NCBI GenBank assembly: GCA_963808745.1
Contig: CAWEGX010000003.1
Span: forward strand, 466,197 to 530,196
DNA from: an uncultured Bacteroidales bacterium
GTDB taxonomy: Bacteria; Bacteroidota; Bacteroidia; Bacteroidales; UBA10428
Length of the DNA stretch: 64,000 nucleotides
Reading direction: 5' to 3'
Part shown: piece by piece, positions 16,685 to 60,202 of the stretch
How the letters are laid out: every line of letters starts with the position of its first letter
Numbering within the stretch: the stretch's first letter is position 1
Position numbers and translations under genes: made by a program
Notes under the pieces: model-generated
Databases searched by the model: none
What the model saw: the letters and a program-made list of their open reading frames with translations, nothing else
What the model was told of the DNA's origin: nothing

Positions 16685-17270
16685 AAATAATCAATGCGAT
16701 CTGGTTTTTACTGTTTGTTGTCCTATTGGCGGCTGTGTTGGCGATCCCGACCTGCACAGGCCGATTTTTGTCCGTGATAAAAAATACCCTGATCTGCCCC
16801 AGTATTCCGAATGGGGTTATAATACATTTGGCGCCTATTTAAATGATGATGTTTTCGTATCCGGTGATTATCTATGGGAACCTGCCAGTGTAACACCGGC
16901 TGAAACAGCCATGGTACTTTCATTCCATGGAGAAAAAAGAACCAAAGGCAAGGATACTACCGATATGATCATGTACTTTAATATCACCCGTTCTTCACCC
17001 CGGTATGATCAGTTTTTATTCTCCCTGAATGATTCGGTAATAGATTTAGCGGCAACTTCAAACCAGGTTTTGATAATGTCTGACACAACATTGTACCCTG
17101 TTACTATTAATAATGGAGAATTGCATTTTAAGAGAGTGCAGAACCTGGTAGTTGATATGCAACCTATGGAGACTATCTTCTCCGGTACCTTCGAATTTCA
17201 GGGTATAATGAATGGAAATCCGGTAAGCGTTACATTGGGAAGATTTGATGTGGGGGTGGGGTATTATTAG
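16681..17270 (+). CDS. Putative lipoprotein, unknown function, with a frameshift inside the signal peptide (~16727)
   Basis: The ATG at 16681 overlaps the upstream stop (ATGA) and encodes 'MKIINAIWFLLFVVLL'. The long ORF in the adjacent frame continues '..GGCVGDPDLHRPIF', so a 1-nt shift restores a lipobox. Confidence 0.5.
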
Positions 17271-17460
17271 GCTAAAGGCTAAAGGCTGTTAGGCTGAAGA
17301 CTGTCAGGAATGCCTCTTCGTTGCTTGCAGTCGTTAAATCCCGGGTACTATATTCAGAATTCGGCGTTCGGTGTTCTCCCGATAAATCGGGACAGGCTTT
17401 GTTCGATATTATTTGTGATGACACAATAACACTGAACAAGGAACACCGAATTTCGAATTA
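17268..17460. repeat. Intergenic repeat mosaic A
   Basis: 'taggctaaaggctaaaggctgttaggctgaagactg' starts at the TAG stop. It is followed by a 'gcagtcgt' unit, a small hairpin 'cccgataaatcggg' and a long-range inverted repeat 'ttcggtgttc' (17367) / 'gaacaccgaa' (17441). Confidence 0.85.
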
Positions 17461-17470
17461 CGAAGATGGT

Positions 17471-18704
17471 TTACAGAGTAACTACCTTACCCATGAATAG
17501 TATCGTATTCGTGGTGGTTTCGCGGATGGCAAAGATAAAGGGACGATCGACGATGAAGGGAATGAAAACGGGCTCCGGAGGCATGCGAGGTTTCAACAAT
17601 GCCAACAACTGTTACTGCTGCTGCTTCGGTTCCTTCTTCATTTACTTCCACAAAGGAATTATGCTTTACAAAACTGATATACAAGTCAGCCGTCTGGATT
17701 AATGTTGCTGAAATCAGCCGGACCAAACGCTTTCACCATTCCCAATGCCATTAAGATCGTCATTTAATGTCCTTTCATATTCAAATTTGAATTTCGGCAT
17801 GGCCACATGCAACATTTGCCTTTGCGGTATCTGCCAGCCATCCGTTCCATATTTCAGGGGTAAGATCTGTCAGCCAAAGCGGAAACAGAATATCCTTCCT
17901 TCGGCAACAGCACCACCATTGAGAAATTTCCCTGGCCATAAGGCATTTCCAGCAATTGCAGACTGTCATTGGAATAATAATCGAATGTTCCCTCCTGGTG
18001 CATGAACGGGATTGTGCTTTGCCCGGACCTGCAGATTAAACGTCCCCTGCGGTAGTATGATCCTTATCAAAATCATATTTCCACTCTCCTTTGAAATAGA
18101 TCGCGTTGATCAGAAACATGACCATATCGGGGGAAATTTCATCAATTACCTTTTTGATTTTATCATTGGTTTTTGTCAGCCACCCAGCCATTGATTTTAC
18201 TTACTGATGCCGTCATCATTAAAATCCAGTGCCTTAACTTCGGCATTATAATAACTCTGGTTTATGCTGATAAAATCCGGAAGCACAGAAAAATCATCGC
18301 GGTACCAGATTGAATTGGCTATTCCCAGCTTAACGGTCGGATCCAGGTCCAGCAGGGTATTGGTTAATTTCTGGAAATATCCGTTGATCTCGTCAGCAGA
18401 AAGATCGGGGAAACGAAGTGTATTTTGCATTTCTGTTTTTGTATCCCCGTCGGCACCATTATATGTCATGGCCAGTGCCAGCGAAATGCTCAGGGGGGAA
18501 ATGAAAACATTTTTATCCCCGTTTTCAGCTTTGTTGATTGTCCGGAACATATCAAATCCGAAAGCATTATTGGATGATACAAGGGATTTCTGATTTGGCG
18601 GTCAACGACACCTGCACAAGTTCACTGTTTTCGTCTGGCTTGTCTTTTGCACATCCGGCCAGCACCGCCGAAATAAGCAGACATGGAAATAATAAACGGT
18701 TCAT
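17471..18704 (-). pseudogene. Lipoprotein-anchored serpin, broken by at least five frameshifts
   Basis: The pieces lie in different frames. They are 'MNRLLFPCLLISAVLAGC' (lipobox), 'NNAFGFDMFRTINKAENGDKNVFISPLSISLALAMTYNGA', 'TNDKIKKVIDEISPDMVMFLINAIYFKGEWKYDF', the hinge 'FVEVNEEGTEAAAVT', and the C-terminus 'FIVDRPFIFAIRETTTNTILFMGKVVTL*'. Confidence 0.8.
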
Positions 18705-18733
18705 ATGGAGTTTGTTTTCACTAATGATGGGAA

Positions 18734-21356: not shown

Positions 21357-21424
21357 TACAATACCGTATGCGCTCTGCCAATTACAGATCTGCTATGTCC
21401 CTTGTCCCTCAGTCCCTTGTCCCT
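21357..21424. repeat. Intergenic repeat mosaic B
   Basis: The 'gtcccttgtccctcagtcccttgtccctt' array abuts the FtsX stop codon. The module 'tacaataccgtatgcgctctgcc' recurs at 28286. Confidence 0.8.
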
Positions 21425-23795
21425 TCATTCATGCTTTAGCGTCTCCGCCGGATTAGTCCTTATCGCCCTTATGGTCTGGTAACTGATGGCGGCCATGGCG
21501 ACCACCACGGTTATGGCAGCAGAAACGCCAAATATCCATGCATTCAGCCTGGTATGATAACTGTAATTTTTCAGGAAATGCGACAGCAGATACCAGGTTA
21601 TCGGGACGGAAATTACTGTTGCCAGCACCAGCAACTGCAAAAACTGCCAGGTAAAAAGATGGAATATAGTTAACAGCAGGTGCACCCAACGCCTTTCGTA
21701 TACCCACTTCACGGGTTTTTTGTTCCACTGTGTAGGTAGCCATTCCAAACAGGCCAATGGCGGCAATGAGAATGGCAAAGATGGCAAAGTAATTCATCAA
21801 TGTGCCCATTCTTTCTTCGGTCCTGTACATGTTGTCAAAATCCTGGTCCACAAAATGATAGTCAAATGGATAGGCGGGCATGATTCTCTTCCAGGCTTTT
21901 TCCAGCTGCTTCATTGTTTCAGTGAGGTTTCCCGGGTTAACCCGTATATACATGTAATTCCAGAACTGGGGCCCCCACATGGAGATGGCCAGGGGTTCTA
22001 TTTTATTGTGAAGCGACTGGAAATTGAAATCTTTCATAACACCGACGATGGTCCCGTAAGATCCAAATCTCAGCGAGGCTCCCACTGCATTATCCAGACC
22101 CATTATTTTTTCCATCGTTTCGTTAATGATAAAATTGGCTGTTGTATCATGAGATACGTCACCGGGATAGGCTTTTGAGAATGTGCGACCCGCCTTCATT
22201 TCGATTCCCATCGTTTCAACATAATCAAAATCAACTCCACTCATGCTGACAAGAATATCCGTTTCCGGCGACTTTCCTTCCCAAAAGGCGTTGTCGGAAT
22301 TACTTCCAATCTGTTGCGGCTGGTCCAAACCTGCAGTGATCGATTTTACAACCGGTTCATGCAGAAGTTCCTCCTTGATCATGGGATAGGAATTTTTCAG
22401 ATCGCCCCGGAGCGGGAGATAGAGCAGATTCTCTTTGTCATACCCAAGCTTTTGACTTTGCATAAGATGAAGCTGGCGGTATATAACGATGGTACCGGCA
22501 ATAAGCATAATACTCAAGCCAAACTGGATTGTAACCGAAATTTTCCGGAAAGTGATACCTGTTGTGCCGGTATTGAAATTTCCTTTCAATGTGTGGATAG
22601 GTCTGAAACCGGAAAGAACCATGGCCGGATAGGTGCCGGCAAGCAATCCCGTGAGAATGGTGATCACCACCATACCCAGAACAAATCGCATGGTTATCAG
22701 GTCAGCCAGGTGAAATACTTTTCCTGAAATACTGTTAAATGGTGATAGCAGCAATAAAACAAGGACAAATGCAATTACCATTGAAAGAAATGCCATCAGA
22801 AGCGATTCGCCAAAAAACTGGAACAGCACATTATTACGATGCGCACCATTTACCTTGCGCAATCCGATTTCCTTTGCACGGGCAATTGACCGGGCGGTAC
22901 TCAGGTTCATGAAGTTTATGCAGGCAATGATGAGCACAAGGATCGCAATGGATGCAAAAATCCATACATTGAGTATCGCTCCCGGCTTATGACCGAAACC
23001 CCAGTAACTGTACAAGTGCATACGCGTAAGCGGTGCAATTACAAAATCAGTTGTGCTTTGGGGATTATGCTGCCTTGCAATCGCGGTCAGCTTGGCATTC
23101 ACCTTCGAAGTTTCCACATTCGGCCTGAGCATCACATAAGTCGTGATTGAATTGTTACCCCATTGATCGGAATACCATTGTGATTTTTTCATGTAATCGA
23201 AGGGAATCAGAAAATCCTGGTCAATGGAGCTGTTGGATGGCATTTTTTTCATTACACCGGTAACCTGGAAGATCTCTTTCGTATTAACAGTAAATGTTTT
23301 ACCTATAGGATCTTCTTTGCCGAAATATTTGGATGCCATCTCATCACTGATAACCACTGAGCCTGGCTGAGCCAGGGCTTTTTTTGGATTACCCTTAATC
23401 AGCTCAAAGGAAAACATGTCAAAAAATGAGGAATCTACGGCAGATACCTTTTCTTCATAAAATGATCTTTCATTCCTTGTAAACAGAAAACTACCTGCCT
23501 GGGTGATCCTGCATGCTTCCCTGATCTCAGGTATCTGATCGCGCCAGACCGGGCCTGAAGGCCAGGGTGTTACCTGCACATGATACACACCATTGCTGTA
23601 GTGCTGATCTTCTTCCACACGGTAAATCAATTCAGCGTTCTTATGAAACCTGTCAAAGTCCAGCTCATCTGCCACCCAGAGGAAGATCAGCATGGCACAG
23701 GCCAGTCCGATGGATAATCCCGCCATATTCATGAATGACACACTGAAATGACGTACGATATTCCTGAATGCGATAACCAGGTAATTTCTGAACAT
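21425..23795 (-). CDS. FtsX/MacB-like ABC transporter permease (~790 aa), one frameshift near the 3' end (~21700-21790)
   Basis: 'MFRNYLVIAFRNIVRH' is typical of this Bacteroidota permease family, which carries two FtsX domains. The true C-terminus '...YQTIRAIRTNPAETLKHE*' lies in overlapping ORF 21425..21787. Confidence 0.75.
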
Positions 23796-26220: not shown

Positions 26221-26769
26221 TTATGTCAGTTTGAAATAGTGTTCTCTTAATTGTTTGATGGCCCGGTGCACCTGAACTTTTATGGCAGGAACCGACAGGT
26301 CGCGGATAGAGGATATTTCTTCATATTTCAGTCCCTGAAACCGGCTGAGAACCAGGATCTCCTTTTGCTCGGGAGTAAGCCTGGCCATCGCCCTGTCGAG
26401 TTTTTCATATTCTTCCTCATTAAAGCCTTCTTTCTCTTCGGCGAAATTCTCATTGTATTCCTCTACCTGTGTATATCGTTCTGTGGCCTTTTGCTGCTGT
26501 TTGCAAAAGTCAACATGTATATTCCGGGCCATCTGATATATCCATGATTTAAAACTGTGATCCTCCTTGAACGTATGCCTGTATTTGATGATCCTGTAAA
26601 ACAGGTTCTGTGTCAGATCCTGGCTTACCGATCTGTCGAAGGTGAGCCTGAGCATAAAATTGTACAGTCTCACGTGATACCGCTCAAACAGAACTGATAA
26701 TTCGGCCAGGTTTCCCTCTTTAACCCGCTTCATGATTATTTCATCGGATATTTCAGCCACGTTGCCCAA
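26221..26769 (-). CDS. ECF-type RNA polymerase sigma-70 factor
   Basis: Region 2 is 'DLTQNLFYRIIKYRHTF..SFKSWIYQMARNIHVDF'. Region 4 is 'QKEILVLSRFQGLKYEEISSIRDLSVPAIKVQVHRA'. The start is TTG or an internal ATG and remains uncertain. Confidence 0.85.
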   Translation of the reverse strand: MGNVAEISDEIIMKRVKEGNLAELSVLFERYHVRLYNFMLRLTFDRSVSQDLTQNLFYRIIKYRHTFKEDHSFKSWIYQMARNIHVDFCKQQQKATERYTQVEEYNENFAEEKEGFNEEEYEKLDRAMARLTPEQKEILVLSRFQGLKYEEISSIRDLSVPAIKVQVHRAIKQLREHYFKLT

Positions 26770-26875
26770 TTAATTGCTTTCTGATATGGTTACCACCGAA
26801 AGGTACAATGGTTACATCATTTTTCCAGAAATATTTTAGGGAGATGTTATGATGGCGTTATGGGGAGGATGGGAA

Positions 26876-27078
26876 GGCTGTTAGGCTACTAGGCTGCTAG
26901 GCTGCTAGGCTTCTAGGCTACTAGGTACTAGGCTACTTGGCTACCAGGCCTCTAAGCTACCACGGAAAAAGTCTTCGAAGTTCGAAGTTCGATGAATACT
27001 GAAATTTCTTAGCGGAATTCACGCCATTCACCATTCACCATTCACTTTTTCGACTGCAAAACTGCACGACTGCAGAAC
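26876..27078. repeat. Intergenic repeat mosaic C
   Basis: About 10 units of 'ctaggctN' (26876-26961), then 'ttcgaagttcgaagttcga' (26974-26992), 'ccattcaccattcaccattcac' (27024-27045) and 'cgactgcaaaactgcacgactgcagaac'. Confidence 0.9.
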
Positions 27079-27081
27079 TAA

Positions 27082-27564
27082 CTAAAAACGGTATGTCAGG
27101 CTCAGGCCCTGCCGGTTGGGCGCACATATTACACCCAGGGAAAGATTATCCAATTTGTGCCGATAACTTTTAACCTTGTAACTACCAATGCTGCTCAGGG
27201 TTATTCCCCCGGCCAGCAAGCCGATCCCAAGGGAAAGAAAAATCACTCCCTCTGCTGCCTGCAGGTCGTATTTATCCTGGTTGGGAATAGTATATCCATA
27301 GCCTGTATTCCAGTAAGCATTTGGTATGTTGGCTAACAGGACAATACCTGCGATTAAAGAACCACCGCCGAAACCGGTCATGATTAATCCTCCCCTTCGC
27401 ATTTTCGTATAGGTAATGATTTTGCTTTTGTATAGTTGTCTGTATTTATCTTGCCCGGTTACAGAAGTCTCTATTTGTCCCGTTACGGGTTCTTCTACTT
27501 GTCCGGTTACAGAATTCACACCCAGAACCATGAAAATCAGGAATAACCAGGCTTTCTTTTTCAT
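27082..27564 (-). CDS. Hypothetical secreted/membrane protein
   Basis: Signal peptide, three 'VTGQ.E' peptide repeats, Gly-rich hydrophobic segments, and the ending 'LSLTYRF'. Confidence 0.5.
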   Translation of the reverse strand: MKKKAWLFLIFMVLGVNSVTGQVEEPVTGQIETSVTGQDKYRQLYKSKIITYTKMRRGGLIMTGFGGGSLIAGIVLLANIPNAYWNTGYGYTIPNQDKYDLQAAEGVIFLSLGIGLLAGGITLSSIGSYKVKSYRHKLDNLSLGVICAPNRQGLSLTYRF

Positions 27565-27613: not shown

Positions 27614-27641
27614 GTCCCTTGTCCCTAGTCCCTTGTCCCTA
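27614..27641. repeat. Intergenic repeat mosaic D (GGGAC-type array, reverse orientation)
   Basis: 'gtcccttgtccctagtcccttgtcccta'. It contains the last four codons and the stop of the 27625..28242 gene. Confidence 0.85.
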
Positions 27642-28242
27642 ATTTAATCACCCCAAATGACGAAGGTATATGAAAGTCCGGGCGGACCGATTCAGGTTTT
27701 ATCCAGCTTATCCATGAAAAACCGGATTCAGGATCACGCACTTTCAGGCATTCGCCACGGAACAGTCCTGCCTGCAATTCATTGTTATTTAGCAGATTCA
27801 ATTCTTTGAGCGAGGCCAGTGTAATGGAACCTTCAACAATGTAACCTGAGTCAGCATAATTCGATTTGATCTGAAGCTGATTGATGCCGGGCCATTGCCA
27901 TTTATAATCAAACTTCCGGTAGAAACTTGCCCTGTAATCAAGGACCCTGCCCAGGGGATCCATTTCCAGGCAATAATAGGGATTAAGCCGGTCATCGCAC
28001 CTGAAGAATATTTCCACCCTGTCAGAATCCACCACTTCCATCTTGTTATTATCATGAACGTACGTAAGGGCGCAGGTGACTACAACATCAAACCTGAAAT
28101 ATAAACGTGCATCGTCCCACAATGCCCGGAATGACATCACGGGTGGCGGCTGGACCGACCATGGATAACTGAATTCCGTCAGAACCAGGGCGTCATCCCA
28201 GTTCAGGGAATGATTTATCTTAAGGGCAGAATACGTTTCCAA
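27625..28242 (-). CDS. CBM9-like (carbohydrate-binding family 9-like) domain protein, TTG start
   Basis: 'WDDARLYFRFDV...DRVEIFFRCDDRLNPYYCLEMDPLGRVLDYRASFYRKFDYKWQWPG' fits the CBM9-like pattern. There is no signal peptide. Confidence 0.55.
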   Translation of the reverse strand: METYSALKINHSLNWDDALVLTEFSYPWSVQPPPVMSFRALWDDARLYFRFDVVVTCALTYVHDNNKMEVVDSDRVEIFFRCDDRLNPYYCLEMDPLGRVLDYRASFYRKFDYKWQWPGINQLQIKSNYADSGYIVEGSITLASLKELNLLNNNELQAGLFRGECLKVRDPESGFSWISWIKPESVRPDFHIPSSFGVIKLGTRD

Positions 28243-28285: not shown

Positions 28286-28406
28286 TACAATACCATATGC
28301 GCTCCGCGCAATCGTAAATCGTAAATCGTAAATCGTAAATTCCTACCGACGGCAAATCCCTACAGGATTTTCCTGCTCGTCCCTAGTCCCCAGTCCCTAG
28401 TCCCTT
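28286..28406. repeat. Intergenic repeat mosaic E
   Basis: 'tacaataccatatgcgctccgcgc', then 4x 'aatcgta' (28310-28340), the module 'tcctaccgacggcaaatccctacaggattttcc', and 'gtccctagtccccagtccctagtccct' (28379-28406). Confidence 0.9.
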
Positions 28407-28408: not shown

Positions 28409-31052
28409 TTACATTCCCAGCCAAAAACTCATCTTTACCATAAATACGTTAGTCGGTGCTCCTCCAAAAAGGTCACCCAGGTTATCACTTAGCGAGGAAT
28501 AATAAATATTGTCACGGTTATGCTGATTGTTCTCCCACACCAGGTAAATTGTTGAACCCGGGCGGTATTCCCATCGTGCCACAAGATTTGACCGGAATTC
28601 CCTGAAACTGAAATCCGGATTGTTGAATGAATAGGTGTCTGGTCCGTCATTCACCTGATAGGAATTCGTGGACTCGTCGAAGCTGATTTCAGATTCCGTA
28701 AAAGAATGATACCGGTCATTTATGTCATCTGCATTGGCATCGAGGGTTTTCTTGAAATCATCGTATATACCGGTTGAAATAAAGGGACTCCCATAATACT
28801 GAATGGAGATATCCGGCGTGATATTATAATTAAGGCGCAAGGTGACGCTATAGGTTTGCTGTTTGATATGTGCCAGAATGTATCGCATATCGGTACTCGT
28901 CTGTTTCTGAGTCACATAAATGAAATTGTCGATATTGTGATCATAGGCCATTTGGCCGGTGATATAAAAATGATTTCCAAGTCTGAAACTGAGTGATGGT
29001 TTTATCACATATCGGCGGGATACACCATCCGTGCTCACGGAACTTATATTATTCAATCCGAATATTACACGATCTGATTTATTTGTATTAAACGAGATGA
29101 TGTTATCCCAGTAAGGTGAAAGACGAAAAGCCGGTCCTCCGCGCAGCAGGCGGGTGGACAATTCTGCAAATGTATATGATTCGGTCATGGAAAGATCCCA
29201 CCGGTTGGTGAACTGTGCTGTAAATGCCGCGTTTACATCATTGTGGGTGCTCACTCCGCCGTAGTTCCAGGCATTCATCTGTCCAAGGGTAAGGGTATAA
29301 TTTCGTAATATGCCGCGAGGTTCGGTCTGGCGGATGCCCAGTTTGGTGAGATTCTGGATAAGATCAGCCATCAGCAGGTAGCCAACATCGTTCATGTCAA
29401 AGCCGGGTGACCACCAGCTTACCTTTTCAGAAAAAATAAAGCGCTTGTTACCAAGCCGGCCTGCACTCAGATAACCGCCGGTACCCGAAAGTGACCTTCG
29501 GCTGCTGTCAACACCCAGGTAACCTGAAGCATCCGGTCGCTGGTAATAGTGCAGGGGATTACGCTGAAGTGACCACTATGGCTTCTTCCTTTCCATTAAT
29601 ATAGCTCATAATACCCTTAAAATCAAGAAAATATTCGCGGTCTTTTGAATATTGAAGCAGGTCGATGCCGGCAGTATAGGCATTCTTATTGAGGTATTCC
29701 AGGTGGGGAACGTCGGAAAAACGGTTGGTGGAGGTAAACATGGTACCAAACTGGGTATTGCCCTTGTTGGCAATTTTCTGAACGCGGGCTACCAGGAAAT
29801 TGGTGAGGGGTTCAACTACGGGATTGGTCTCCACCCCGTCCGTTGTAACTTTTGCCGTTTCTTTCTGCGTGGTGCTTTGCAGGATACCCACGGATATCCC
29901 GTTACGGGTTGTTCCTGTCAGCTTGATTGCATTGATGATGTTGGTGAATTCAGGTTCTTTTGAAAAAGAGGTTACATTGTCCACTTCAGGCGAATAGGAG
30001 GGAGCATGCCCGATCCGGCGGGAATAGAACATCATGTTATTGTCGGGTGAAAAATCAAAAATATGTTTTCCTTCCAGGAAAAAGGGCCTTTTCTCTTCGT
30101 AAAAAGTCTCAAATGCGGTAAGGTTCATGACGGAAGGATCCGCCTCGATCTGTCCGAAATCCGGATTTATGGTGACATCCATTGTAAAATCACCGACACC
30201 TATTTTGCTGTCAATACCGGCATTCCCATTCCACCTGACTCCATTGGAATAAGGGCTGCCCTCGATCTGGGGTTCCATGGTCATCTTGGCGGCTACATAG
30301 GGAAGAAACTCAATGAGCCTTGGTTTTTGTATGCCCTGCAGCCCGTACATCGTGCCGAATGAATAAACATGGCCGCTGTTTTTGCGGGGAATAAGGCTCC
30401 ATTGGTCCACCTCCTGAAGTCGGCGGACTATGCGGCGCACATGCAATCCCCATACCATCCCGCTGTCGCTTTGATTATAACGCAGCTGGTTAAGCGGGAT
30501 CCTGAATTCGGCGATCCAGGAGGAATCATTCACAGATGTTTTTCCTTCCCAGACTGCGTTCCAGTTGAGGTTAACCGACAGGTTATCGGTGACGATGAGA
30601 TCGGTCTTGTTGCCACCCGCGTTGATATTGAATTCTGCTGCTGCCCGGCTGTCGTGATAAGAGTCAAAGGCAACACTGATGAGATCACCGATGGAGTTGT
30701 CATCGCGGTTTCCCACGAAGCGGTTTATCTTATCAGGTTCAGGATCCCAGGCGCGAAGGGCAAAATAGATATTTTTATCATCGAACAGTATCTTGATCTT
30801 TGTCGGGTAGGTGGGCTGTGCCCGTTCAACCGGTGTATTCTGCAGAAATTTCTGTGACCAGTTGCCTTCATTCTTCCAGCAGTCATCATCGAGTTTGCCA
30901 TCAATGACCGGGGGCTTTCCCTGTAATTTAACCGTATGATAGGACCGTTTGTAAGCCTGGTCAAAGGGAATGAGCGTATCGGCGCTTTGCGCCAGGGAAG
31001 GGGGAGTGGTTAGTGAAAGCAGCAGGAACAATATAAATACCAATCTCATCAT
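28409..31052 (-). CDS. CBM9-like + DUF5916 outer-membrane protein (~880 aa), one frameshift (~29565)
   Basis: The N-terminus has a signal peptide and 'IDGKLDDDCWKNEGNWSQKFLQNTPVERAQPTYPTKIKILFDDKNIYFALRAWD'. The 29396-29560 gap translates in the frame of ORF 28409..29395 ('LQRNPLHYYQRPDASGYLGVDSS...FDMNDVGYLLMADL'). It ends 'VFMVKMSFWLGM'. Confidence 0.7.
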
Positions 31053-31150
31053 GAAAAATTATAGGAATATCTTAAATGGAGCATAAATGTATAGAAGTTT
31101 GTTCAAGTTTATTCGCAAAGTACAATTTTTAGATGGCAATGAATAAACTT

Positions 31151-31317
31151 CGGTTCTGAGTAGTTTTGCAATTGGTTTGTAGAGACAAGGCAATGCCTTG
31201 TCTGTACGATTTCATCCAATATTGAAGTCAAGAAGTCGTGCAGTCTTCGAACCAGGGAGGATTACCGATTACTGATTACCGATTACCGATTACCGATTAC
31301 CGATTACCGATTACCGA
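31151..31317. repeat. Intergenic repeat mosaic F
   Basis: 'cggttctgagtagttttgcaattgg', the 40-nt hairpin element (31178-31217), 'gaagtcaagaagtcgtgcagtcttcgaa', and about 8 units of 'gattacc' (31260-31317). Confidence 0.9.
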
Positions 31318-33089: not shown

Positions 33090-33147
33090 CTTTAAAATGA
33101 TTGATTACTGGTTCTAAGTTGCATTTGCCAGATCAAATATAATAAAA

Positions 33148-33378
33148 GTTCTGCGGTTATGCAGTTGGAGTAATGGTGAATGGTGAATGGTGAATGCTAT
33201 AGATACTTACAAATGATTCAAAATTTGTAGTATGGTTTGGCTCTTGAGTCATTCATTCTTGCAAATTTTCAAATCATCAAATCACCTAATCCCTAAAGTC
33301 CAAAGCCTTCGTACAATTTAAATAAATATCCTTAACTTTACATAACGAGTTACTTCCATTCACCATTCACCATTCACC
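33148..33378. repeat. Intergenic repeat mosaic G
   Basis: 'gttctgcggttatgcagttgg', then 'aatggtgaatggtgaatggtgaatg' (33172-33196) and its inverted partner 'ccattcaccattcaccattcacc' (33356-33378), which ends 8 nt before the rsgA ATG. Confidence 0.9.
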
Positions 33379-33386: not shown

Positions 33387-34451
33387 ATGAACACACTCGA
33401 ACAATACGGCTGGAACGATTTTTTCAGCCAATACAATACACTGAACGGGAATGAGGACTTTGTTGCAGGCAGGGTTGTTTCAGTTAAAGGTTTTAAATAT
33501 CATCTGATACTGGAATCGGGAGAAACTGAAGCAGAGTTATCCGGAAAATTGTTATTCGGTACCGATCACGAGCTTCTCCCGAAAGTCGGTGACTGGGTGT
33601 TCTGCCTGAAATACGACACAATGGGATATATCACCGAGGTATTTCCCAGGTTAAACAGGCTGGCCAGAAAAAATCCGGATAAAACCTCGGAAAAGCAAAT
33701 TCTTGCAGCCAATATTGACTATGCCTTAATTGTGCAGGGACTCGACCGGGAATTTAACCTGATGCGTCTTGACCGGTATCTTGTGCAGATCATAGCCAAC
33801 GGAATCTCTCCCATTATCGTGCTAAACAAGGCCGACCTGATAAGCGACCGGGAGGTATACCGCAACGAGGTCCTGAGACTTGGAAAAGAATGTCCTGTTT
33901 ATTTCTGCAGCACTTACGACGGTTCAGGCCTGGAAGAATTGCTCACCCAGGCCCTGCTTCCGGCAAAAACCTCTATTATGGTTGGTTCATCAGGGGTTGG
34001 CAAAAGTTCGCTGCTGAATTCATTCAGGAAATCAGCAGCCAGAGAAACCGGTCCGTTAAGTTATTCCACCAATAAGGGAATGCATGTGACGACAACACGT
34101 GATCTGTTCAGGCTCCCCAATGGCAGCCTGATCATTGACACACCCGGCATGAGGGAATTTGGAATCGCCCTGGAAGACGGACTGCAGACAGACGGGCTGT
34201 TTCCTTCCATTGATGAATTTTCGCGCAAATGCAGGTATGCCGATTGCAGCCATACCAATGAGGAAGGATGTGCAGTAATTGAGGCTTTTGAAAACCAGCT
34301 CCTTGATCCGGCGGTATATAATAGTTACATCAAACTGATGAAGGAGCAAAGGCGATTTGAGATCCGGGCAGGTGAAAGTAAAAGGCTGGGAAAGCAGTTC
34401 GGCAAAATGATCCGCGAGGCAAAGGATTTCCGGAACAGATATAAGTATTAG
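33387..34451 (+). CDS. rsgA: Ribosome small-subunit-dependent GTPase A
   Basis: Circularly permuted GTPase motifs 'VLNKADL' and 'VGSSGVGKSSLLNS'. The C-terminal zinc motif is 'CRYADCSHTNEEGCAV'. Confidence 0.9.
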   Translation: MNTLEQYGWNDFFSQYNTLNGNEDFVAGRVVSVKGFKYHLILESGETEAELSGKLLFGTDHELLPKVGDWVFCLKYDTMGYITEVFPRLNRLARKNPDKTSEKQILAANIDYALIVQGLDREFNLMRLDRYLVQIIANGISPIIVLNKADLISDREVYRNEVLRLGKECPVYFCSTYDGSGLEELLTQALLPAKTSIMVGSSGVGKSSLLNSFRKSAARETGPLSYSTNKGMHVTTTRDLFRLPNGSLIIDTPGMREFGIALEDGLQTDGLFPSIDEFSRKCRYADCSHTNEEGCAVIEAFENQLLDPAVYNSYIKLMKEQRRFEIRAGESKRLGKQFGKMIREAKDFRNRYKY

Positions 34452-34696
34452 TTCTGCGGTTCTGCGGTTCTGTGATTGGTCTGTAGAGACAAGGCATTGC
34501 CTTGTCTGTACGATTTCATCCAATCATTGCAGTCTTGCAGTCGTGTAGTCAATGAAAGTCCCCTTCGGAGGGGGCAGGGGGAGGATTGACGTAATCCACC
34601 CCCTACCCCCGCCAGCGGCGGAAATCATCCCTTGAAGCCTAACAGCCTATAGCACATATAGCAGCCTAATCCCCTAAGCCTCCAGCCTATCAGCCT
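34449..34696. repeat. Intergenic repeat mosaic H
   Basis: 'tagttctgcggttctgcggttctgtg', the 40-nt hairpin element (34482-34521), 'attgcagtcttgcagtcgtgtagtc', a GC-rich palindromic island (34558-34612), and reverse TAGGCT-type units (34634-34696) overlapping the regulator's stop. Confidence 0.9.
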
Positions 34697-53240: not shown

Positions 53241-53558
53241 ATGGATACTGGATGCTGGATGCTGGATACTGGATGCTGGATGCTGGATACTGGATGCTGG
53301 ATACTGGATGCTGGATGCTGGATACTGGATGCTGGATACTGGATGCTGATGAGGAATTTTGAATTATGACATGTGGAATGGGACTGAAGACTGCACTACT
53401 GCAAGACTGCGTTTTTCATAATAAATATTGGAAATCGTACAGACAAGGCATTGCCTTGTCTCTACAACGTTTTTCCCTTTACCGAATACCGATCACTGTC
53501 ACCGATACCGATCACCGATCACCGATTACCGAATACCGATTACTGATTACCGATTACC
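53241..53558. repeat. Intergenic repeat mosaic I
   Basis: About 15 units of 'tggatRc' (53241-53351), 'ggactgaagactgcactactgcaagactgcg', the hairpin element in reverse orientation (53431-53466), and 'accgat'-type heptamers (53480-53558) running into the UDG-like gene. Confidence 0.9.
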
Positions 53559-54236
53559 TAAAACCCTCACATACCTGTCGATATACTGCTCCTTAAACCT
53601 CGCCTTATATTGCATGATATACCTGGGATGTTCGAGGGCGACTATTTCATCGAAAAAGTGATGCTCCTTGTTTAATTTCCTGAGAAAGGTTTCATTTTTA
53701 CCAGTTCCAAGACAGTAACAAACAGATGTATCAACGCCAAAACCGATCTGCTTTTTCAATGTGTCAAGGATGAATGGATAAGCTATCCGCTCCAGTTCAC
53801 TGGTGTCATAGTAATTGAAGTTTACAGGCTTCTTATTTTTCCCTTCCTTTGTAAATCCAAGCGGACATATCGCACTGAGAAAATATTGACCATAAAATTC
53901 CTTCACTCCTCCAAATGCCTCTATCATTTCATAAATAAATGCAGAAGACGGCTCATGGGTTCGAAATCCTGTGAAAGGTATGCCGCAATTCTCCGTCAGT
54001 CGTTTGGTGTCTGTAAAGGGTATGCCAGTGGAACCGGCACCAAACCGGCCCGGATTAATACCAAGGATAAGCTTTCTTTCCATGTGGTCAGAAAAGAACT
54101 TTGTATAGAATTCTGCTGAAAGCTTATTCACTAATGGATTTTCACGAAATGGATTCATGATCCTGACGCCTTCCGGTAAGGTTCCTTTGAACTCCAGGTT
54201 TCTGTAGAATTCAATCACTTTCCGGGCAAATGTCAT
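53547..54236 (-). CDS. Uracil-DNA glycosylase superfamily protein (DUF4918-like)
   Basis: 'LILGINPGRFGAGSTGIPFTD' resembles the UDG-superfamily GxNPG active-site loop. 229 aa. Confidence 0.5.
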   Translation of the reverse strand: MTFARKVIEFYRNLEFKGTLPEGVRIMNPFRENPLVNKLSAEFYTKFFSDHMERKLILGINPGRFGAGSTGIPFTDTKRLTENCGIPFTGFRTHEPSSAFIYEMIEAFGGVKEFYGQYFLSAICPLGFTKEGKNKKPVNFNYYDTSELERIAYPFILDTLKKQIGFGVDTSVCYCLGTGKNETFLRKLNKEHHFFDEIVALEHPRYIMQYKARFKEQYIDRYVRVLGNR

Positions 54237-54379: not shown

Positions 54380-55648
54380 ATGACTATTCAATTTTCATCA
54401 ATATTGGTTAAGATAGTTGTGGTCCTGTTGCTCATCCTGCCAACAATTGATATGAACATCATGGGACAGGATAAACCCGTAAACTATGATGAATCAGCCG
54501 TTCCGGCATATACCCTGCCTGATCCCCTGCGTTTTTCCAACGGGGACGAGGTTAAGGATACAGTGGAGTGGATGAACAAGCGAAGACCTGAAATACTGTC
54601 CCTGTTTGAAACCGAAATGTTTGGCAAAACGCCTGACAGGAAAATCAAGGCCAGGTATACAATTGTATCAGCAGATACAATGGCACTGAATGGAATGGCC
54701 ATCCGAAAACAGGTGAGAATTGAATTTCCATCCGAACCCGGTGCTCCGTCCCTGATGCTGCTGATCTTTCTGCCCAAATCCCAGAAGCCCGTGCCCGTAT
54801 TTCTTGGGCTCAATTTTGATGGGAATCATACTATTGTTGATGATACGGGTATTATAGTGTCAGAGGCCTGGCAGGCATCCGCCCATGCCCGCGGAGAAGA
54901 TTCGCTCAGCTGGCCGGTCAAAAATATTGTTGGTCACGGATTTGCGCTGGCCACAATTTACTATGGGGAAATTGTTGAAGATGAAAATAACGGATTCAGA
55001 AATGGAATTCAACCTGTATTTTATTCTCCGGGACAGACATCGCCAAAGCCCGACGAATGGGGCGCCATCGGTGCATGGGCATGGGGTTTGAGCCGTGCTA
55101 TGGACTATCTTGAGAATGATAAGCTGTTAGATCCAAAAAAGGTGGTTGTTTTCGGACATTCGCGGTTGGGCAAGACCGCCTTATGGGCCGGTGCTCAGGA
55201 CAGCCGGTTTGCCCTTATAATATCGAACAATTCGGGATGCGGCGGTGCTGCTTTATCTAAACGAATCTTCGGCGAAACTGTGGGATCTATCAATGCTATG
55301 TTTCCCCATTGGTTTTGCGGAAACTTCAAAAAGTATAACGATAAGGAAATGGATCTGCCGATGGATCAGCACATGCTCATTGCCCTCATCGCACCAAGGC
55401 CTGTTTATGTTACCAGCGCACAGGATGACCAATGGGCCGATCCGAAAGGAGAATTCCTGGGAGTAGTGAATGCAAATCCGGTTTACCGTCTTTTTGGCAA
55501 ACAAGGTTTACCCGTGTCGGTAATGCCTCCGTTGAACAGCCCGGTTATGGGTGACCTCGGTTATCATATCCGAACCGGCCCGCATGCATTAACATACTAT
55601 GACTGGGACAGATTTATGGAGTTTGCACGGAAACATTTTAAAAACTAG
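54380..55648 (+). CDS. CE15-like glucuronoyl esterase / acetylxylan-esterase-like serine hydrolase
   Basis: Signal anchor, then 'YDESAVPAYTLPDPLRFSNGDEV...WMNKRRPEILSLFETEMFG'. The nucleophile motif is 'GHSRLGKTALWAGAQD'. Confidence 0.65.
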   Translation: MTIQFSSILVKIVVVLLLILPTIDMNIMGQDKPVNYDESAVPAYTLPDPLRFSNGDEVKDTVEWMNKRRPEILSLFETEMFGKTPDRKIKARYTIVSADTMALNGMAIRKQVRIEFPSEPGAPSLMLLIFLPKSQKPVPVFLGLNFDGNHTIVDDTGIIVSEAWQASAHARGEDSLSWPVKNIVGHGFALATIYYGEIVEDENNGFRNGIQPVFYSPGQTSPKPDEWGAIGAWAWGLSRAMDYLENDKLLDPKKVVVFGHSRLGKTALWAGAQDSRFALIISNNSGCGGAALSKRIFGETVGSINAMFPHWFCGNFKKYNDKEMDLPMDQHMLIALIAPRPVYVTSAQDDQWADPKGEFLGVVNANPVYRLFGKQGLPVSVMPPLNSPVMGDLGYHIRTGPHALTYYDWDRFMEFARKHFKN

Positions 55649-55869
55649 GCTGTTAGGTTATTAGGCTACTAGACTACTAGGCTACTAGGCTATTAGGCTG
55701 TAGCCTATAGGCTGTTAGGCTGTTAGGCTGTAGGCCAATAGGGGCTTAGGGGCTTAGGGGTTTAGGTTTAGGCTTCATCAGCATATTATCACATTAGCAC
55801 ATTAGCACATTTATTTCCCCTTTTAGTTTTTAACTATCAACTACAATTCAACTATCAACTAACAACTAA
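55646..55869. repeat. Intergenic repeat mosaic J
   Basis: 'taggctgt/taggttat/taggctac...' octamers start at the TAG stop. They are followed by 'cttaggggcttaggggtttaggtttagg', 'cacattagcacattagcacat' (55790-55810) and 'aactatcaactacaattcaactatcaactaacaactaa' (55832-55869), which ends 8 nt before the next ATG. Confidence 0.9.
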
Positions 55870-55877
55870 TAAAAATC

Positions 55878-56579: not shown

Positions 56580-56699
56580 TTTCACCAAAATCAGACACGG
56601 TCAGCATAAAAAAACCTGGAAAATTATTAAGCTTTTAACCGGTATATAAATAGGAAAAAGAATTGCTTCTGTTTTGAAAATAGCAGAAATTAAGGAGAA

Positions 56700-57569: not shown

Positions 57570-57678
57570 CCTGCAAAGGTAGCAATTCCATCATTTTTAC
57601 ATGTGATCCCCTGATTTTTCCATTTACCGGCATCATGACAGGCCTTAACTTTGTACCATAATTTAAAACCAATAAATC

Positions 57679-58218: not shown

Positions 58219-58230
58219 GGAGGATACATT

Positions 58231-58947
58231 ATGAAAACGATTTTGCACCGGGCAGGTACCCGTGGGCATGCCAGCCACGGCTGGCTTGAAAGTTACCATA
58301 CATTCAGTTTTGCCGATTATTTCGATCCGGGGCGCATTCATTTTGGCGCCCTCCGGGTTTTAAATGATGATGATGTAGCGGGAGGAATGGGTTTTGGAAA
58401 ACATCCCCATGATAATATGGAAATCGTTACAATCATGCTCGAGGGTGAATTACGGCACGAAGACAGCATGGGACATAGCGAGATATTGCGAAAGGATGAG
58501 GTACAGGCAATGTCAGCCGGAACAGGTATTTTCCATTCAGAAGTGAATAACCTGCGCGACAAGCCTGCCAGACTGCTTCAGATATGGGTGTTTCCGGAAA
58601 GACGAAATATTACACCCCGGTATGAACAAAGGGCCTTTGATCCGCAGGAACGGAAAAACACCTGGCAGTTGCTGGTTGGGCCTAACCCTCCTGATGGTGC
58701 CCTCGACATTAAGCAGCAATCCTGGTTTTCACGGATTGACCTCGAAAAGGGAAGCCGGGTGGATTATACCCTGCATAACAAGGACAATGGGGTGTACCTT
58801 TTCATGATCAGCGGGAATACAACAATTGACAATGATCTGAAACTTGGCTACCGCGATGGTGCCGGCCTTTCCGAAACAGATAAGGTGAATATCCTTGCAG
58901 ATGAGAAATCGGAAGTGCTGGCGATTGAGGTGCCTATGATTGAGTAG
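58231..58947 (+). CDS. Pirin family protein
   Basis: 'HPHDNMEIVTIMLEGELRHEDSMG' is the cupin metal-binding region. 238 aa. Confidence 0.85.
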   Translation: MKTILHRAGTRGHASHGWLESYHTFSFADYFDPGRIHFGALRVLNDDDVAGGMGFGKHPHDNMEIVTIMLEGELRHEDSMGHSEILRKDEVQAMSAGTGIFHSEVNNLRDKPARLLQIWVFPERRNITPRYEQRAFDPQERKNTWQLLVGPNPPDGALDIKQQSWFSRIDLEKGSRVDYTLHNKDNGVYLFMISGNTTIDNDLKLGYRDGAGLSETDKVNILADEKSEVLAIEVPMIE

Positions 58948-59146
58948 GGACGAGGGACTGGGGACGAGGGACGAGGAAGAAAGTTCTGCAGTTCTGCAGT
59001 TATGCAGTTGCAGTTTTGCTGCTGCGTCAGCACATTTCATACATTAGCATTAGCACATTAGCACATTAGCACATTAGCACTTAAAACCTCAAACCTCAAA
59101 TCTCAAATTCATAATTCATCATTTATAATTCATAATTCATAATTCC
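58945..59146. repeat. Intergenic repeat mosaic K (five array families in ~200 nt)
   Basis: 'tagggacgagggactggggacgagggacgagg', 'gttctgcagttctgcagttatgcagttgcagtt', 'cacattag' x~5 (59031-59080), 'aacctcaaacctcaaatctcaaa', and 'ttcataattcatcatttataattcataattcataattcc'. Confidence 0.9.
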
Positions 59147-59186
59147 TATTACTACTTTTACAGGCACAATCCTAATTAAGTCACCA

Positions 59187-60059
59187 ATGCCCGAAAAGCG
59201 TACATTCATAAAAACCACCGAAAAGCCTTCTGTTTACAGTCATTTGGAAAAGATGAGCGTTCGTGAGCTGCTTGTCAGTATGAATAATGAAGACAAACAG
59301 GTTCCCCTGGCAGTTGAAAAGGCGCTCCCTCAAATTGAAAAGCTTGTGGAAGCCATTGTGGATTGCATGCTGGCGGGCGGACGTCTTTTTTATATCGGTG
59401 CCGGTACCAGCGGCAGACTTGGCATTCTTGATGCCAGTGAATGTCCTCCTACATATGGCGTGGAACAAGGACTGGTGGTTGGTTTAATGGCGGGCGGAGA
59501 TTCTGCCATCCGTAAAGCAGTGGAGCATGCAGAGGACGATACAAACCAGTGCTGGAAGGATCTCCAGTCATACAATATTCAGAACAGCGATGTGGTGATA
59601 GGCATTGCGGCCAGCGGGACAACGCCTTATGTGATAGGCGGGGTCACCAGTTGCCGTGAACATGGGATCATTACCGGTTGCATCACATGCAACTGCGGAT
59701 CTCCCCTGGCAGCCAATGTGGATTTTCCGGTGGAAGTGGATGCAGGTCCGGAATTTGTCACCGGAAGCACACGCATGAAATGCGGAACAGTTCAAAAACT
59801 TGTGCTGAATATGATCTCTACATCGGTGATGATCAGGCTGGGCAGGGTAGAGGATAATAAAATGGTGAATATGCAACTCACCAATAACAAGCTTGTAGAT
59901 CGGGGTACCCGCATGGTGATGGAGCAAATGAAAATCTCTGATTATGAGGAAGCGAAGGCTCTCCTGATGAAATATGGTAGTGTGAAAAAGGCTATTTTAG
60001 GGACAAGGGACAAGGGACTAGGGACTGGGCAGTTCGGAAAATCCCGGTTTAAGGATTGA
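59187..60059 (+). CDS. murQ: N-acetylmuramic acid 6-phosphate etherase
   Basis: SIS domain 'GGRLFYIGAGTSGRLGILDASECPPTYG' and 'VVIGIAASGTTPYV..'. The last ~19 codons are translated repeat array. Confidence 0.85.
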   Translation: MPEKRTFIKTTEKPSVYSHLEKMSVRELLVSMNNEDKQVPLAVEKALPQIEKLVEAIVDCMLAGGRLFYIGAGTSGRLGILDASECPPTYGVEQGLVVGLMAGGDSAIRKAVEHAEDDTNQCWKDLQSYNIQNSDVVIGIAASGTTPYVIGGVTSCREHGIITGCITCNCGSPLAANVDFPVEVDAGPEFVTGSTRMKCGTVQKLVLNMISTSVMIRLGRVEDNKMVNMQLTNNKLVDRGTRMVMEQMKISDYEEAKALLMKYGSVKKAILGTRDKGLGTGQFGKSRFKD

Positions 60060-60202
60060 TTGTCGGTAGAGGAAGAATTTACGATTTACGATTTACGATT
60101 GGAAGGCATCGACTCGTCACCGACCAATACCGAAGCTCCCTGAAAGCTAAACCCTAAACCCCTAAACCTGAACCCTAAGCCCCTAAGCCCCTAAGCCCCT
60201 AA
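59998..60202. repeat. Intergenic repeat mosaic L
   Basis: 'tagggacaagggacaagggactagggactggg', the module 'ggaaaatcccggtttaaggattgattgtcggtagagga', 'atttacgatttacgatttacgatt' (60077-60100), and 'aaaccctaaacccctaaacctgaaccctaagcccctaagcccctaagcccctaac' (60148-60202). Confidence 0.9.

Follow-up and report, generated by a model that had tools for sequence, protein, structure and literature searches.

Cyanobacteria have been known to harbour arrays of heptamer repeats since about 1990, a feature recognized in Xanthomonas from the 2000s on. Those called STRR, which include the units CCCCAGT, TTGGTCA and CAACAGT, make up several heptamer families arranged in tandem and dispersed through the intergenic DNA of heterocystous cyanobacteria. 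We know of no function or origin established for the arrays of either group. Here we describe tandem arrays of 7- and 8-nt units that populate the spacers of a 64,000-nt stretch of the genome of an uncultured bacterium labelled Bacteroidales (assembly GCA_963808745.1, contig CAWEGX010000003.1). The whole stretch is called the window, and coordinates are window positions. The original prediction, made from the sequence of the window alone, had pointed to the STRR heptamers, which are the right analogue: in both cases several heptamer families occur in tandem arrays dispersed in the intergenic DNA of one genome. The host of the window belongs in contrast to the Bacteroidota, and octamers are included among its units. 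The three STRR units are not found in tandem in the window.

The GGGNATC and GGGGAYT heptamers of Xanthomonas and Nostoc are intergenic, are preferentially found as four units, and obey a strand and position rule relative to genes (Rehm et al. 2015, PMC4692102). Their length and sequence differ among close relatives, and they reside in stable regions and have no established function (PMC4692102). One family of the window, AGGGACN, matches these repeats in the strand and position rule, the preference for four units, the variability, the residence at stable loci and the lack of ties to gene function, and the polarity of the other families also agrees. Differences concern the sequence of the units, the phylum, the presence of octamers and the concatenation of several arrays per spacer. 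Moreover, the family able to form G-quadruplexes is one of about 15 in the window, most of the others not being capable of three-tetrad structures, and the AGGGACN quadruplex is an in silico prediction only. Tandem GGGNATC or GGGGAYT units were not found in the window.

Long simple sequence repeats (SSRs), made by units of 5–11 nt, were surveyed by Mrazek, Guo and Shah (2007). As the survey is reported in PMC4679880 and PMC4692102, heptamers are the most abundant units, repeats of non-pathogens have an intergenic bias, and polymerase slippage was proposed as their origin; no Bacteroidota are among the ten genomes richest in 5–11-nt repeats, according to PMC4679880. The window arrays share with long SSRs the excess length, the dominance of heptamers and the intergenic bias. 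In contrast, anchoring at stop codons, polarity and composite modules are not among the features for which that survey is quoted. TAACTGA direct repeats have been identified in Beggiatoaceae, in cyanobacteria and in five Bacteroidetes (MacGregor 2015, PMC4679880). Other heptamers, or "larger assemblages of heptamer repeats", were found in the same spacers in Gramella forsetii, Aequorivita sublithincola and Elizabethkingia anophelis, and close relatives lack the arrays at the same spacer (PMC4679880). Both TAACTGA repeats and the window arrays are intergenic heptamer arrays with a fixed orientation to the neighbouring gene, but the former reside mainly just upstream of starts, whereas the strongest anchoring in the window is at stops. 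TAACTGA occurs eight times in the window as single units, never in tandem. In Nostoc, modest effects of heptamer repeats on promoters have been described, with no mechanism (10.1101/2022.06.06.494920).

The arrays of the window are thus a lineage-level example of the known heptamer-repeat class, and not a new kind of system. The novelty in the phylum that the original prediction implied is not sustained, as both the heptamer SSR class and heptamer assemblages of Bacteroidetes have been published (PMC4679880, PMC4692102). New in detail are the phylogenetic position, the duality of 7- and 8-nt units, the presence of about 15 families, concatenated per spacer, and the supply of stop codons by repeats, as are the extension of the strand rule to all families and spacer types, and the linkage of some arrays to a palindrome of the repetitive extragenic palindrome (REP) type.

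Arrays of 7- and 8-nt units in the window

Arrays were searched by Tandem Repeats Finder (TRF) and by a separate scan, at periods 4–15, for units repeated perfectly 2.5 times or more. Related or comparison metagenome loci and assemblies are denoted by L-numbers; L003 is a k141 short-read assembly. Fourteen perfect runs have period 7 and seven have period 8. At each of periods 4–6 the scan found one to five short runs, at periods 9–13 and 15 none, and the two runs of period 14 are the TGGATRC array counted again. Overlapping TRF rows removed, the window contains 29 arrays of period 7 or 8, compared to a mean of 0.70, and a maximum of 4, in 50 dinucleotide-preserving shuffles. The period-7/8 arrays are confirmed as real, and those of the original prediction were found by both searches. 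Unit length and iteration beyond chance are those of the long-SSR class, as are the predominance of heptamers in 236 kb of the lineage and the intergenic bias of the window arrays.

Most arrays include 3–5 copies of a 7- or 8-nt unit, rarely 8–19, and measure 31 nt (median; interquartile range 27–40 nt). About 15 unit families coexist, and octamers make up about 38% of the arrays. Among 99 arrays analyzed in 236 kb of the lineage, 56 are made by heptamers, 34 by octamers, 4 by nonamers, 1 by hexamers and 1 by decamers. The claim that units measure 7 or 8 nt, and never a multiple of 3, is true of the window and almost true of the lineage.

All arrays reside between 17.2 and 60.2 kb. As predicted, none was found in the first 17.2 kb: taking into account spacers of at least 100 nt, arrays are present in 0 of 16 in this region and in 11 of 19 in the rest of the window (Fisher p=1.9e-4). 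Their absence from the operon at 37.9–53.0 kb is true as well, but this operon simply has almost no spacer DNA. The twelve array-bearing spacers had been described as consisting largely of arrays. Coverage ranges from 8 to 79%, and the description suits about five of them (47–79%), not the others (8–35%). The arrays had also been called intergenic, but several are not purely so and overlap the 3' end of the upstream open reading frame (ORF); in five genes repeat units encode the last 1–7 codons and the stop. All the families named, and their orientations, were recognized, the reverse TAGGCTNN array at 34634 and the GCAGTCKT array at 31224 being degenerate. Families do recur at distant sites and on both strands, but their orientation is almost fixed relative to the flanking genes, as detailed below. 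Anchoring at stops, the G-to-C polarity, the REP-like palindrome and the composite modules had escaped the original prediction.

Arrays abut stop codons and are polar

Ten arrays lie within 3 nt of the end of a stop codon, or overlap it, compared to 0.77 expected under uniform placement in spacers (p about 1e-8). Arrays abut 10 of 14 stops and none of 10 starts (p=5.8e-4), the nearest array being 8–9 nt from a start codon. The stop is TAG in 7 of 10 genes abutted by arrays, and in 5 of 48 other genes (p=2.4e-4). Where the unit itself supplies the stop, TAG comes from TAGGGAC, TAGGCTNN and CTTAGGGG, TAA from GGTAATC. All 13 arrays of AGGGACN or AGTGACG (6 independent loci) lie on the coding strand, at -19 to +27 nt from a stop. 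Coding-strand counts are 5/5 for GGTAATC, 3/3 for CATTAGCA, about 11/13 for GTTCTGC/GCAGTC and 5/6 for TTTACGA.

The base composition of the arrays changes with their position. The coding-strand GC skew is +0.25 in arrays nearer to a stop and -0.64 in arrays nearer to a start (p=7e-4). The 40 nt past stops have a skew of +0.38 (33% G) in the presence of an array and of +0.01 in its absence, and the polarity therefore does not reflect the general composition of spacers. Each array spacer has a G-rich 5' end and a C-rich 3' end, whichever strand is read, and this holds for tandem, convergent and divergent flanking genes; as a consequence, arrays are G-rich in the coding sense past stops and G-poor before starts. 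The plus-strand skew correlates with the position in the spacer (Spearman rho=-0.73, p=1.3e-5), and all 11 spacers with arrays are polar, compared to 10 of 24 without arrays. The same polarity was found at independent metagenome loci, where the skew near stops is positive in 32 cases and negative in 8, and near starts positive in 10 and negative in 21 (p=1.4e-4).

No TG dinucleotide is present in any of the seven coding-strand units of arrays preceding starts, and 4 of 5 start-proximal arrays are free of ATG, GTG and TTG in the sense orientation, compared to 0 of 5 in antisense. In a mixed metagenome set, stop-abutting arrays close all three frames in 23 of 32 cases in sense and 10 of 32 in antisense (p=0.0075). 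Filters based on the supply of stop codons and the avoidance of start codons, tried as a full account of the polarity, were supported in part only.

AGGGACN arrays and RNA folding

Twelve of 16 AGGGACN arrays, including all five of the window, are made by exactly four units. Four units are retained at the ends of the pirin gene and of the SIS-domain gene in the window, L065 and L187, and also at the SIS end in L186. The variable position of the unit drifts, while the length of four units stays. This four-unit rule argues for constraint. Each 7-nt unit provides a G-tract and a loop, as in the heptamers of Xanthomonas and Nostoc, where a tract of 3-4 G is combined with a loop of 3-4 nt, and the coding-strand location at stops of the 13 AGGGAC-type arrays corresponds to the rule described for those repeats. 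When G-quadruplex folding is allowed in ViennaRNA, a three-tetrad quadruplex is predicted for AGGGACN arrays, with energies of -8.4 to -10.7 kcal/mol, compared to -1.3 to -3.3 kcal/mol without it.

The array spacers are for the most part poorly structured. Most fold no better than shuffles (z 0 to -1.7), and only spacers including inverted elements stand out. The idea that arrays are hairpins was dropped for the window, since RNA folding shows that the arrays themselves are unstructured and that only inverted-element spacers fold beyond shuffles. As to known RNA elements, Rfam covariance models run at the gathering threshold on the whole window matched no array, the sole match being a tRNA-Met at about 14901-14975. 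Scans of the window for consensus promoters and terminators gave counts at chance level, and are uninformative.

AGGGACN arrays of at least 3 units were also observed in 50 viral or putative viral contigs of IMG/VR (L015-L064; GC 23-73%). Near stops they are in sense in 12 cases and in antisense in 3, a hint only, given that ORF calls are unreliable at high GC. Many of these contigs hold several families of 7/8-nt units, often as inverted pairs 40-100 nt apart (for example L040, L032 and L044).

Related genomes and turnover of arrays

The gene content of the region is that of Bacteroidota, as predicted. Pfam searches identified type IX secretion system (T9SS) sorting domains, CBM9, an extracytoplasmic function (ECF) sigma factor, RsgA and MurC in the window, and an SusC/D-like operon in relatives. 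The nearest named relatives of MurC are found in Cytophagaceae/Sporocytophaga (68-69% identity), and the nearest genomes are metagenome-assembled genomes of uncultured soil bacteria labelled Bacteroidales. Seven assemblies (L001, L002, L003, L009, L065, L186, L187) share synteny with the window over 22-57 kb, their nucleotide identity being 76-92%. BLAST alignments to these relatives stop exactly at spacers, and the orthologous spacers of all seven hold the same unit families; the arrays are therefore not confined to this contig, the outcome that the original prediction had made a test. The vocabulary of the relatives includes TAGGGAC, CGGTAAT, TTTACGA, AGTTCTGC, CCCTAAGC, GACTGCAA, TAGGCTG, ATGCTAAT, AATTCAT, AACTATC and TCCAGCA. 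The lineage has 3.81 arrays per 10 kb, and outgroups, in which RsgA is 29-64% identical, have 0.63. The long-read assemblies L186 and L187 contain many split genes.

Arrays turn over fast, as indicated by the presence of different families in orthologous spacers of congeners. Directly past the rsgA stop, five genomes feature five different units: GTTCTGCG in the window, TAGGGAC in L001, GATTTAC in L002, AGTGACG in L003 and AGTTCTGC in L009. The esterase stop is followed in the window by about 175 nt of TAGGCTNN, TAGGGGCT and CATTAGCA arrays, which extend towards a conserved promoter/leader block, TTTTAGTTTTTMACTATCAAC; the interval between stop and block is empty in L186 and L187, and filled in other ways in L065 and L009. 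L186 and L187, which are 90-96% identical, differ by two whole arrays in the spacer between the pirin and SIS genes. In contrast, the AACTATC array, which is free of G and forms the leader of the racemase gene, is kept in four genomes. Copy numbers of orthologous arrays, compared between assemblies, are 4 and 7, 4 and 6.6, and 8.3 and 7.4.

The murC neighbourhood (window 1-17 kb) has a lower GC content (32-44%), and Pfam identified ordinary metabolic genes, including murC. It is not syntenic with the L001 genome, nor with a strain of 98% MurC identity, and is array-free in all three (loci L188, L189), from which it follows that arrays live in the stable, syntenic part of the chromosome. A prophage or island at 1-17 kb was considered and not kept in view of the ordinary metabolic genes, and we refer to a variable, non-syntenic region.

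Three adjacent arrays of 9-10-nt units (TCGCAGATTT / CTCGCAGAT) were observed in L001 (7691-7838), in the spacer orthologous to window 31053-31303. They belong to the small number of arrays of the lineage that depart from the 7/8 period.

Palindromes, composite modules and inverted pairs

The 29-nt perfect palindrome GTAGAGACAAGGCAWTGCCTTGTCTCTAC occurs in three copies in the window, where none is expected (Table 1). The copies share 37-50 nt of flanking sequence and an adjoining GCAGTCKT array, and fold at -21 kcal/mol. The element begins with GTAG, and is repetitive, extragenic and palindromic, as REPs are. A GTAG start is said to be the REP hallmark of Nunvar 2010. At least 120 metagenome stretches (L066-L185) include the palindrome, with GTAG...CTAC flanks, in unrelated contexts and at GC contents of 21-46%. 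Compared to REPs and REPINs (Bertels and Rainey 2011, PMC3116915), the palindrome differs in that no more than 3 of the 12 spacers contain it, and in that its copies are singlets with tandem arrays at their sides, and not doublets. Flanks of the GTAGAGACAAGGCAWTGCCTTGTCTCTAC loci contain also related palindromes with other stems, as AGACGCGATGCATCGCGTCT and AGACTTGCCATGGCAAGTCT.

Arrays lie at most 30 nt from 13 of 136 palindromes, and in the other organisms sharing the palindrome array periods range from 6 to 11, with a mode of 7. A module made by a CGGTAWT array, an A-rich linker, the palindrome, GATTYCC and a further array was found in at least 7 contigs of unrelated context, and the same composite modules are present in JGI metagenome contigs. 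Common descent of the loci carrying the array-palindrome module was rejected in favour of dispersal of the module, as no locus is orthologous to the flanking genes of the window. A second module, in which AGGGACN x4 and TTTACGA are separated by the linker GGAAAATCC..GGATT..GTCGGTAG, occurs twice in the window, in opposite orientations (Table 1). The order GTTCTGC, CATTAGCA, AATTCAT is common to the pirin spacer of the window and a non-orthologous spacer of L001. Recurring modules and shared array order indicate that the vocabulary was partly spread by the copying of larger pieces. Profile scans detected no RAYT/IS200-like transposase among the window ORFs that were scanned, although no search aimed at transposases was made.

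Some arrays are arranged as inverted pairs. In the divergent rsgA spacer, which folds well beyond shuffles (z about -5), the arms are (GGTGAAT)n / (ATTCACC)n, and are replaced in L001 by (GGTGACT)n / (AGTCACC)n, a concerted and complementary change that affects all units of the two arms. Another organism (L087/L106, GC 41%) has 8 inverted pairs among the 10 heptamer-array pairs listed, with 4.3-4.6 units and stems of about 32 nt. Of the five L087 pairs read in sequence, four begin at a stop codon or within about 10 nt past it, and in L087 9465-9556 the variant units of the two arms mirror each other. The purine-rich arm always comes first in the L087/L106 hairpins. The L106 pairs AATTAAG/AATTCTT and TTGAAAA/CAACTTT are not complementary.

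Other inverted elements were observed. Spacer 17320-17465 folds strongly (z=-4.3), with inverted CGGTGTTC / GAACACCG sequences round a shared core, AATAACACTGAACA. A similar hairpin element, with the 14-nt tandem TCTTCGGTGTTGAG x2.9, is located at a non-orthologous gene end in L065 (15457-15560). The CGGTGTTC / GAACACCG element represents a second family of dispersed hairpins. A further inverted repeat, the G/C-rich CCCCTTCGGAGGGGGCAGGGGGAGG...CCACCCCCTACCCCCGCC, is found at 34555-34630, where rsgA and the sensor-like gene converge, and contributes to z values of -2.9 and -4.5.

Origin and role of the arrays

On balance we give slightly better than even likelihood to a combined picture, in which the arrays are hypervariable long SSRs born by slippage, spread in part as modules, and filtered at the transcript level. 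In this picture they represent, in an uncultured Cytophagales-like lineage, the Bacteroidota counterpart of the cyanobacterial STRR and of the GGGNATC repeats of Xanthomonas and Nostoc. Tandem duplication and slipped-strand mispairing would give birth to the arrays and change their size; slippage is the accepted origin of this class of repeats, and is consistent with the copy-number differences of orthologous arrays. The vocabulary may have been spread in part by copy-and-paste of composite modules including an array, a unique linker, the REP-like palindrome and a further array. Selection on transcripts would then decide which arrays persist. Arrays occupy the unconstrained, stop-proximal part of the spacer, and those invading gene ends would survive only when the unit provides a stop. 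G-rich arrays past stops, notably AGGGACN arrays of four units, could fold into G-quadruplexes or act as single-strand elements of another type, and in this way mark the 3' end, protect it, or insulate it from the next gene. Arrays adjacent to starts would have to be free of G, and hence of AUG, GUG and UUG and of strong structure. Bacteroidetes initiate translation without Shine-Dalgarno pairing, and feature depletion of AUG and low structure upstream of starts (PMC6847099). G-free leader arrays would fit this mode of initiation, as nearby AUGs are avoided and unstructured leaders are preferred.

Several points weigh against this explanation. Slippage, as any RNA-level role of the arrays, is something we infer from sequence. 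Slippage alone explains neither the exact abutment of stops nor the near-exclusive 7/8 period. The modules found account only in part for the identity of units at independent loci. The polarity may be stated as a property of DNA, independent of genes, and would fit also an origin at the DNA level or from hairpins. When the test for closure of all frames is limited to the window, the difference is not significant (4 of 10 arrays in sense, 2 of 10 in antisense), and in the mixed metagenome set the rule of start-codon-free leaders is not significant either. Lastly, many post-stop families, such as GTTCTGCR, GGTGAAT and TAGGCTNN, are unable to form three-tetrad G-quadruplexes.

The arrays may alternatively be neutral junk, produced by a lineage-specific bias towards slippage and duplication, without filter or function, their position and orientation reflecting mutational asymmetry. 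We regard this as unlikely. The fast change of orthologous spacers, with gain and loss of whole arrays, the poor folding of most array spacers and the lack of Rfam matches are what neutral repeats would exhibit, and their known analogues have no established functional role (PMC4692102). The persistence of four AGGGACN units at two loci across four genomes, despite drift of the unit, argues against neutrality, as does that of the AACTATC leader array in four genomes. Polarity characterizes all array spacers and is absent from non-array spacers. Moreover, mutation linked to transcription would give a uniform skew in co-transcribed tandem spacers, not a reversing one.

Each family could instead be a multimeric site for a dedicated RNA- or DNA-binding factor, as for HutP/TRAP-like rings reading UAG-type triplets spaced by 7-8 nt. 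We find such a cis-regulatory code improbable, and the post-transcriptional network that it would form, marking 3' untranslated regions and leaders, just as improbable. The strand-specific orientation relative to genes, the narrow range of array lengths and the presence of identical units at independent loci and across congeners are in line with binding sites. So are the two 5' leaders of the divergent rsgA pair, which share a repeated motif and change together in L001. TAACTGA repeats have been suggested to act as binding sites (PMC4679880), and so have the heptamers of Nostoc (bioRxiv 10.1101/2022.06.06.494920). Gene-specific regulation is however hard to reconcile with the presence of different families at the same gene end in close relatives and with the unrelated functions of the flanking genes; about 15 families would require about 15 factors, and no candidate factor was identified.

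Inverted array pairs, forming a long stem-loop from the stop codon, might act as bidirectional terminators or 3' stabilisers. The unpaired mosaics of the window would in this case derive from such hairpins by decay or by replacement of one half, and the change from G to C along both strands would be accounted for. Both propositions are unlikely. The inverted pairs of L087/L106, the concerted change of both arms in L001, and the additional inverted pairs in L065 (3523/3557), in L002 (7834/7898), in the window (33172/33356) and in many IMG/VR contigs speak for a hairpin origin, and inverted repeats were noted also by Rehm et al. 2015 (PMC4692102). But 10 of 12 array spacers of the window lack a complementary array and do not exceed shuffles in folding, the complement of AGGGACN is never found on the same transcript, and the scan for consensus terminators is at chance level.

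Arrays could also work as strand-specific punctuation. G-rich words at stops, either folded as G-quadruplexes or bound by proteins, would end or insulate transcripts, and G-free words would serve as leaders; we give this little credit. It is likewise improbable that the lineage lacks ordinary terminators, and that the words are written and rewritten by an active process directed to gene ends, possibly templated or linked to REP/RAYT functions, and not by passive slippage. Were it so, the same grammar in Xanthomonas, in Nostoc, in many IMG/VR contigs and in the L087 hairpins would denote a widespread, unrecognised class of transcript-end elements.

It is very unlikely that arrays are carried or laid down by REPIN- or MITE-like elements, depending on a RAYT-type transposase, or by an enzyme adding repeats at stops. 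The REP-like features and the dispersal of GTAGAGACAAGGCAWTGCCTTGTCTCTAC, its physical linkage to arrays in a conserved module and its proximity to arrays at 13 of 136 sites favour mobility, as do the enrichment of TAG stops and the array blocks that appear as insertions at the esterase stop. Yet the palindrome is found in only 3 of the 12 array spacers of the window, a conserved linker is missing from most arrays, neither target-site duplications nor terminal inverted repeats were definable, and no transposase gene was seen in the window. An artefact of long-read metagenome assembly or sequencing, suggested by frameshift-split genes in related long-read assemblies and by the split DUF5916 gene of the window, has negligible likelihood and is excluded by the same families at orthologous positions in seven independent assemblies, including the short-read L003, and by the same modules in JGI contigs, and array boundaries coincide with stop codons.

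Two further candidates were discarded. Arrays are not phase-variation switches, which reside within 5' coding regions or between promoter elements of surface or restriction genes and alter expression through copy number, as they are located past stops or upstream of conserved promoter/leader blocks, and flanking genes are housekeeping or enzymatic. CRISPR arrays are made by repeats of 24-48 nt with unique spacers, and not by directly abutting 7-8-nt units.

The existence of such repeats is of little surprise to the specialist, but the comparative handles that they offer could help to understand the purpose of heptamer repeats. Many families, several congeners of 76-96% nucleotide identity over the aligned syntenic regions, exact anchoring at stops, polarity in every spacer type, conservation of four units despite drift of the unit sequence, and visible gain and loss of whole arrays make the lineage a clean comparative system, from which quantitative predictions on orientation, length and supply of stops follow. 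Annotation is also concerned, as gene ends are partly encoded by repeats, and short-read assemblies may break at array spacers.

Inventory of arrays and adjoining genes

The arrays of the window are listed in Table 1 along with adjoining genes, which have unrelated housekeeping or enzymatic functions. Comparison array pairs of L087 and L106 are also given.

Table 1. Tandem arrays and associated palindromes of the window, and array pairs of L087 and L106
Position	Strand	Array or element	Relation to genes
17269..17308	+	(T)AGGCTAA x2.7, then TAGGCTGT/AAGACTGT units	First unit overlaps TAG stop of ORF 16629-17270
21396..21425	-	AGGGACN x4 on coding strand	Downstream of stop of ORF 21453-23795
26875..26960	+	TAGGCTNN x10 (also scored as 16-nt period)	Mid-spacer, start side of ECF sigma gene 26221-26769
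26974..26992	none	TTCGAAG x2.7, unit with palindromic TTCGAA core	
27024..27079	-	Coding-strand TTTGCAGT x3.4, then TGAATGG x3.1	2 nt past TAG stop of ORF 27082-27564
27614..27641	-	AGGGACN x4	Overlaps last codons of ORF 27625-28242 and provides its TAG stop
28310..28405	-	Composite: AGGGACN x4, linker GGAAAATCC..GGATT..GTCGGTAG, TTTACGA x4.4	3 nt past stop of ORF 28409-29395
31171..31250	none	REP-like palindrome, core AGACAAGGCAWTGCCTTGTCT at 31183-31203, conserved flank, degenerate GCAGTCKT array	
31260..31317	-	GGTAATC x8.3	Overlaps end of beta-lactamase-family ORF 31304-32515; TAA of the unit is the stop
33147..33196	+	GTTCTGCR x2, AATGGTG x3.6; left arm of inverted pair	Divergent spacer; G-poor in sense of minus-strand gene 32490-33089
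33356..33378	+	CCATTCA x3.3; right arm of inverted pair	8 nt upstream of rsgA start
34451..34550	+	GTTCTGCG x2.8; REP-like palindrome 34487-34507; TTGCAGTC x3	First array starts from G of rsgA TAG stop
34634..34692	-	Degenerate TAGGCTNN units, coding strand	At stop of sensor-like ORF 34690-37842
53242..53348	+	TGGATRC x15.3	Equals GCATCCA, G-poor, in sense of downstream minus-strand operon
53382..53558	-	Composite, coding strand: CGGTAWT x11.7, A-rich linker, REP-like palindrome 53441-53461, TTGCAGTC x3.8	CGGTAWT array overlaps TAA stop of UDG gene 53547-54236
55646..55868	+	TAGGCTNN x10.8; TAGGGGCT x3.5; CATTAGCA x4.5; AACTATC x5.7	First TAG of TAGGCTNN array is stop of esterase gene 54380-55648; AACTATC ends 9 nt before racemase start
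58946..59145	+	AGGGACN x4; AGTTCTGC x3.5; CATTAGCA x4; AAACCTC x3.4; AATTCAT x5.7	TAG stop of pirin gene inside first AGGGACN unit
59999..60100	+	AGGGACA x4, linker, ATTTACG x3.4; second copy of 28310-28405 module	Within 3' end of SIS-domain ORF 59187-60059
60147..60202	-	GGGKYTTAG / GGGTTTAG x7.5, coding strand	Overlaps last 20 nt of ORF 60183-61325 and provides its TAG stop
L087 3303-3378		Heptamer-array pair	
L087 6093-6162		Heptamer-array pair	
L087 9465-9556		Heptamer-array pair	
L087 10921-11017		Heptamer-array pair	
L087 11849-12002		Heptamer-array pair	
L106 12217-12300		Heptamer-array pair	

The SIS-domain ORF reads through the AGGGACA x4 array in the window as in L065 (14579-15454) and L186 (14504-15358). 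Its last 20 codons or so are encoded by repeats, and the Pfam match stops at residue 260 of 290.

Two ORFs of the window (28409-29395 and 29559-31052) make up a split CBM9/DUF5916 gene, which corresponds to a single gene of 880 amino acids in L065 (4944-7586). The split gene is either a pseudogene or the result of a long-read indel error. In the array-free region, a 331-nt direct repeat, 99% identical, is found at 3126-3456 and 4834-5163, upstream of the paralogous beta-helix genes 3675-4703 and 5189-6283, and looks like a recent segmental duplication.

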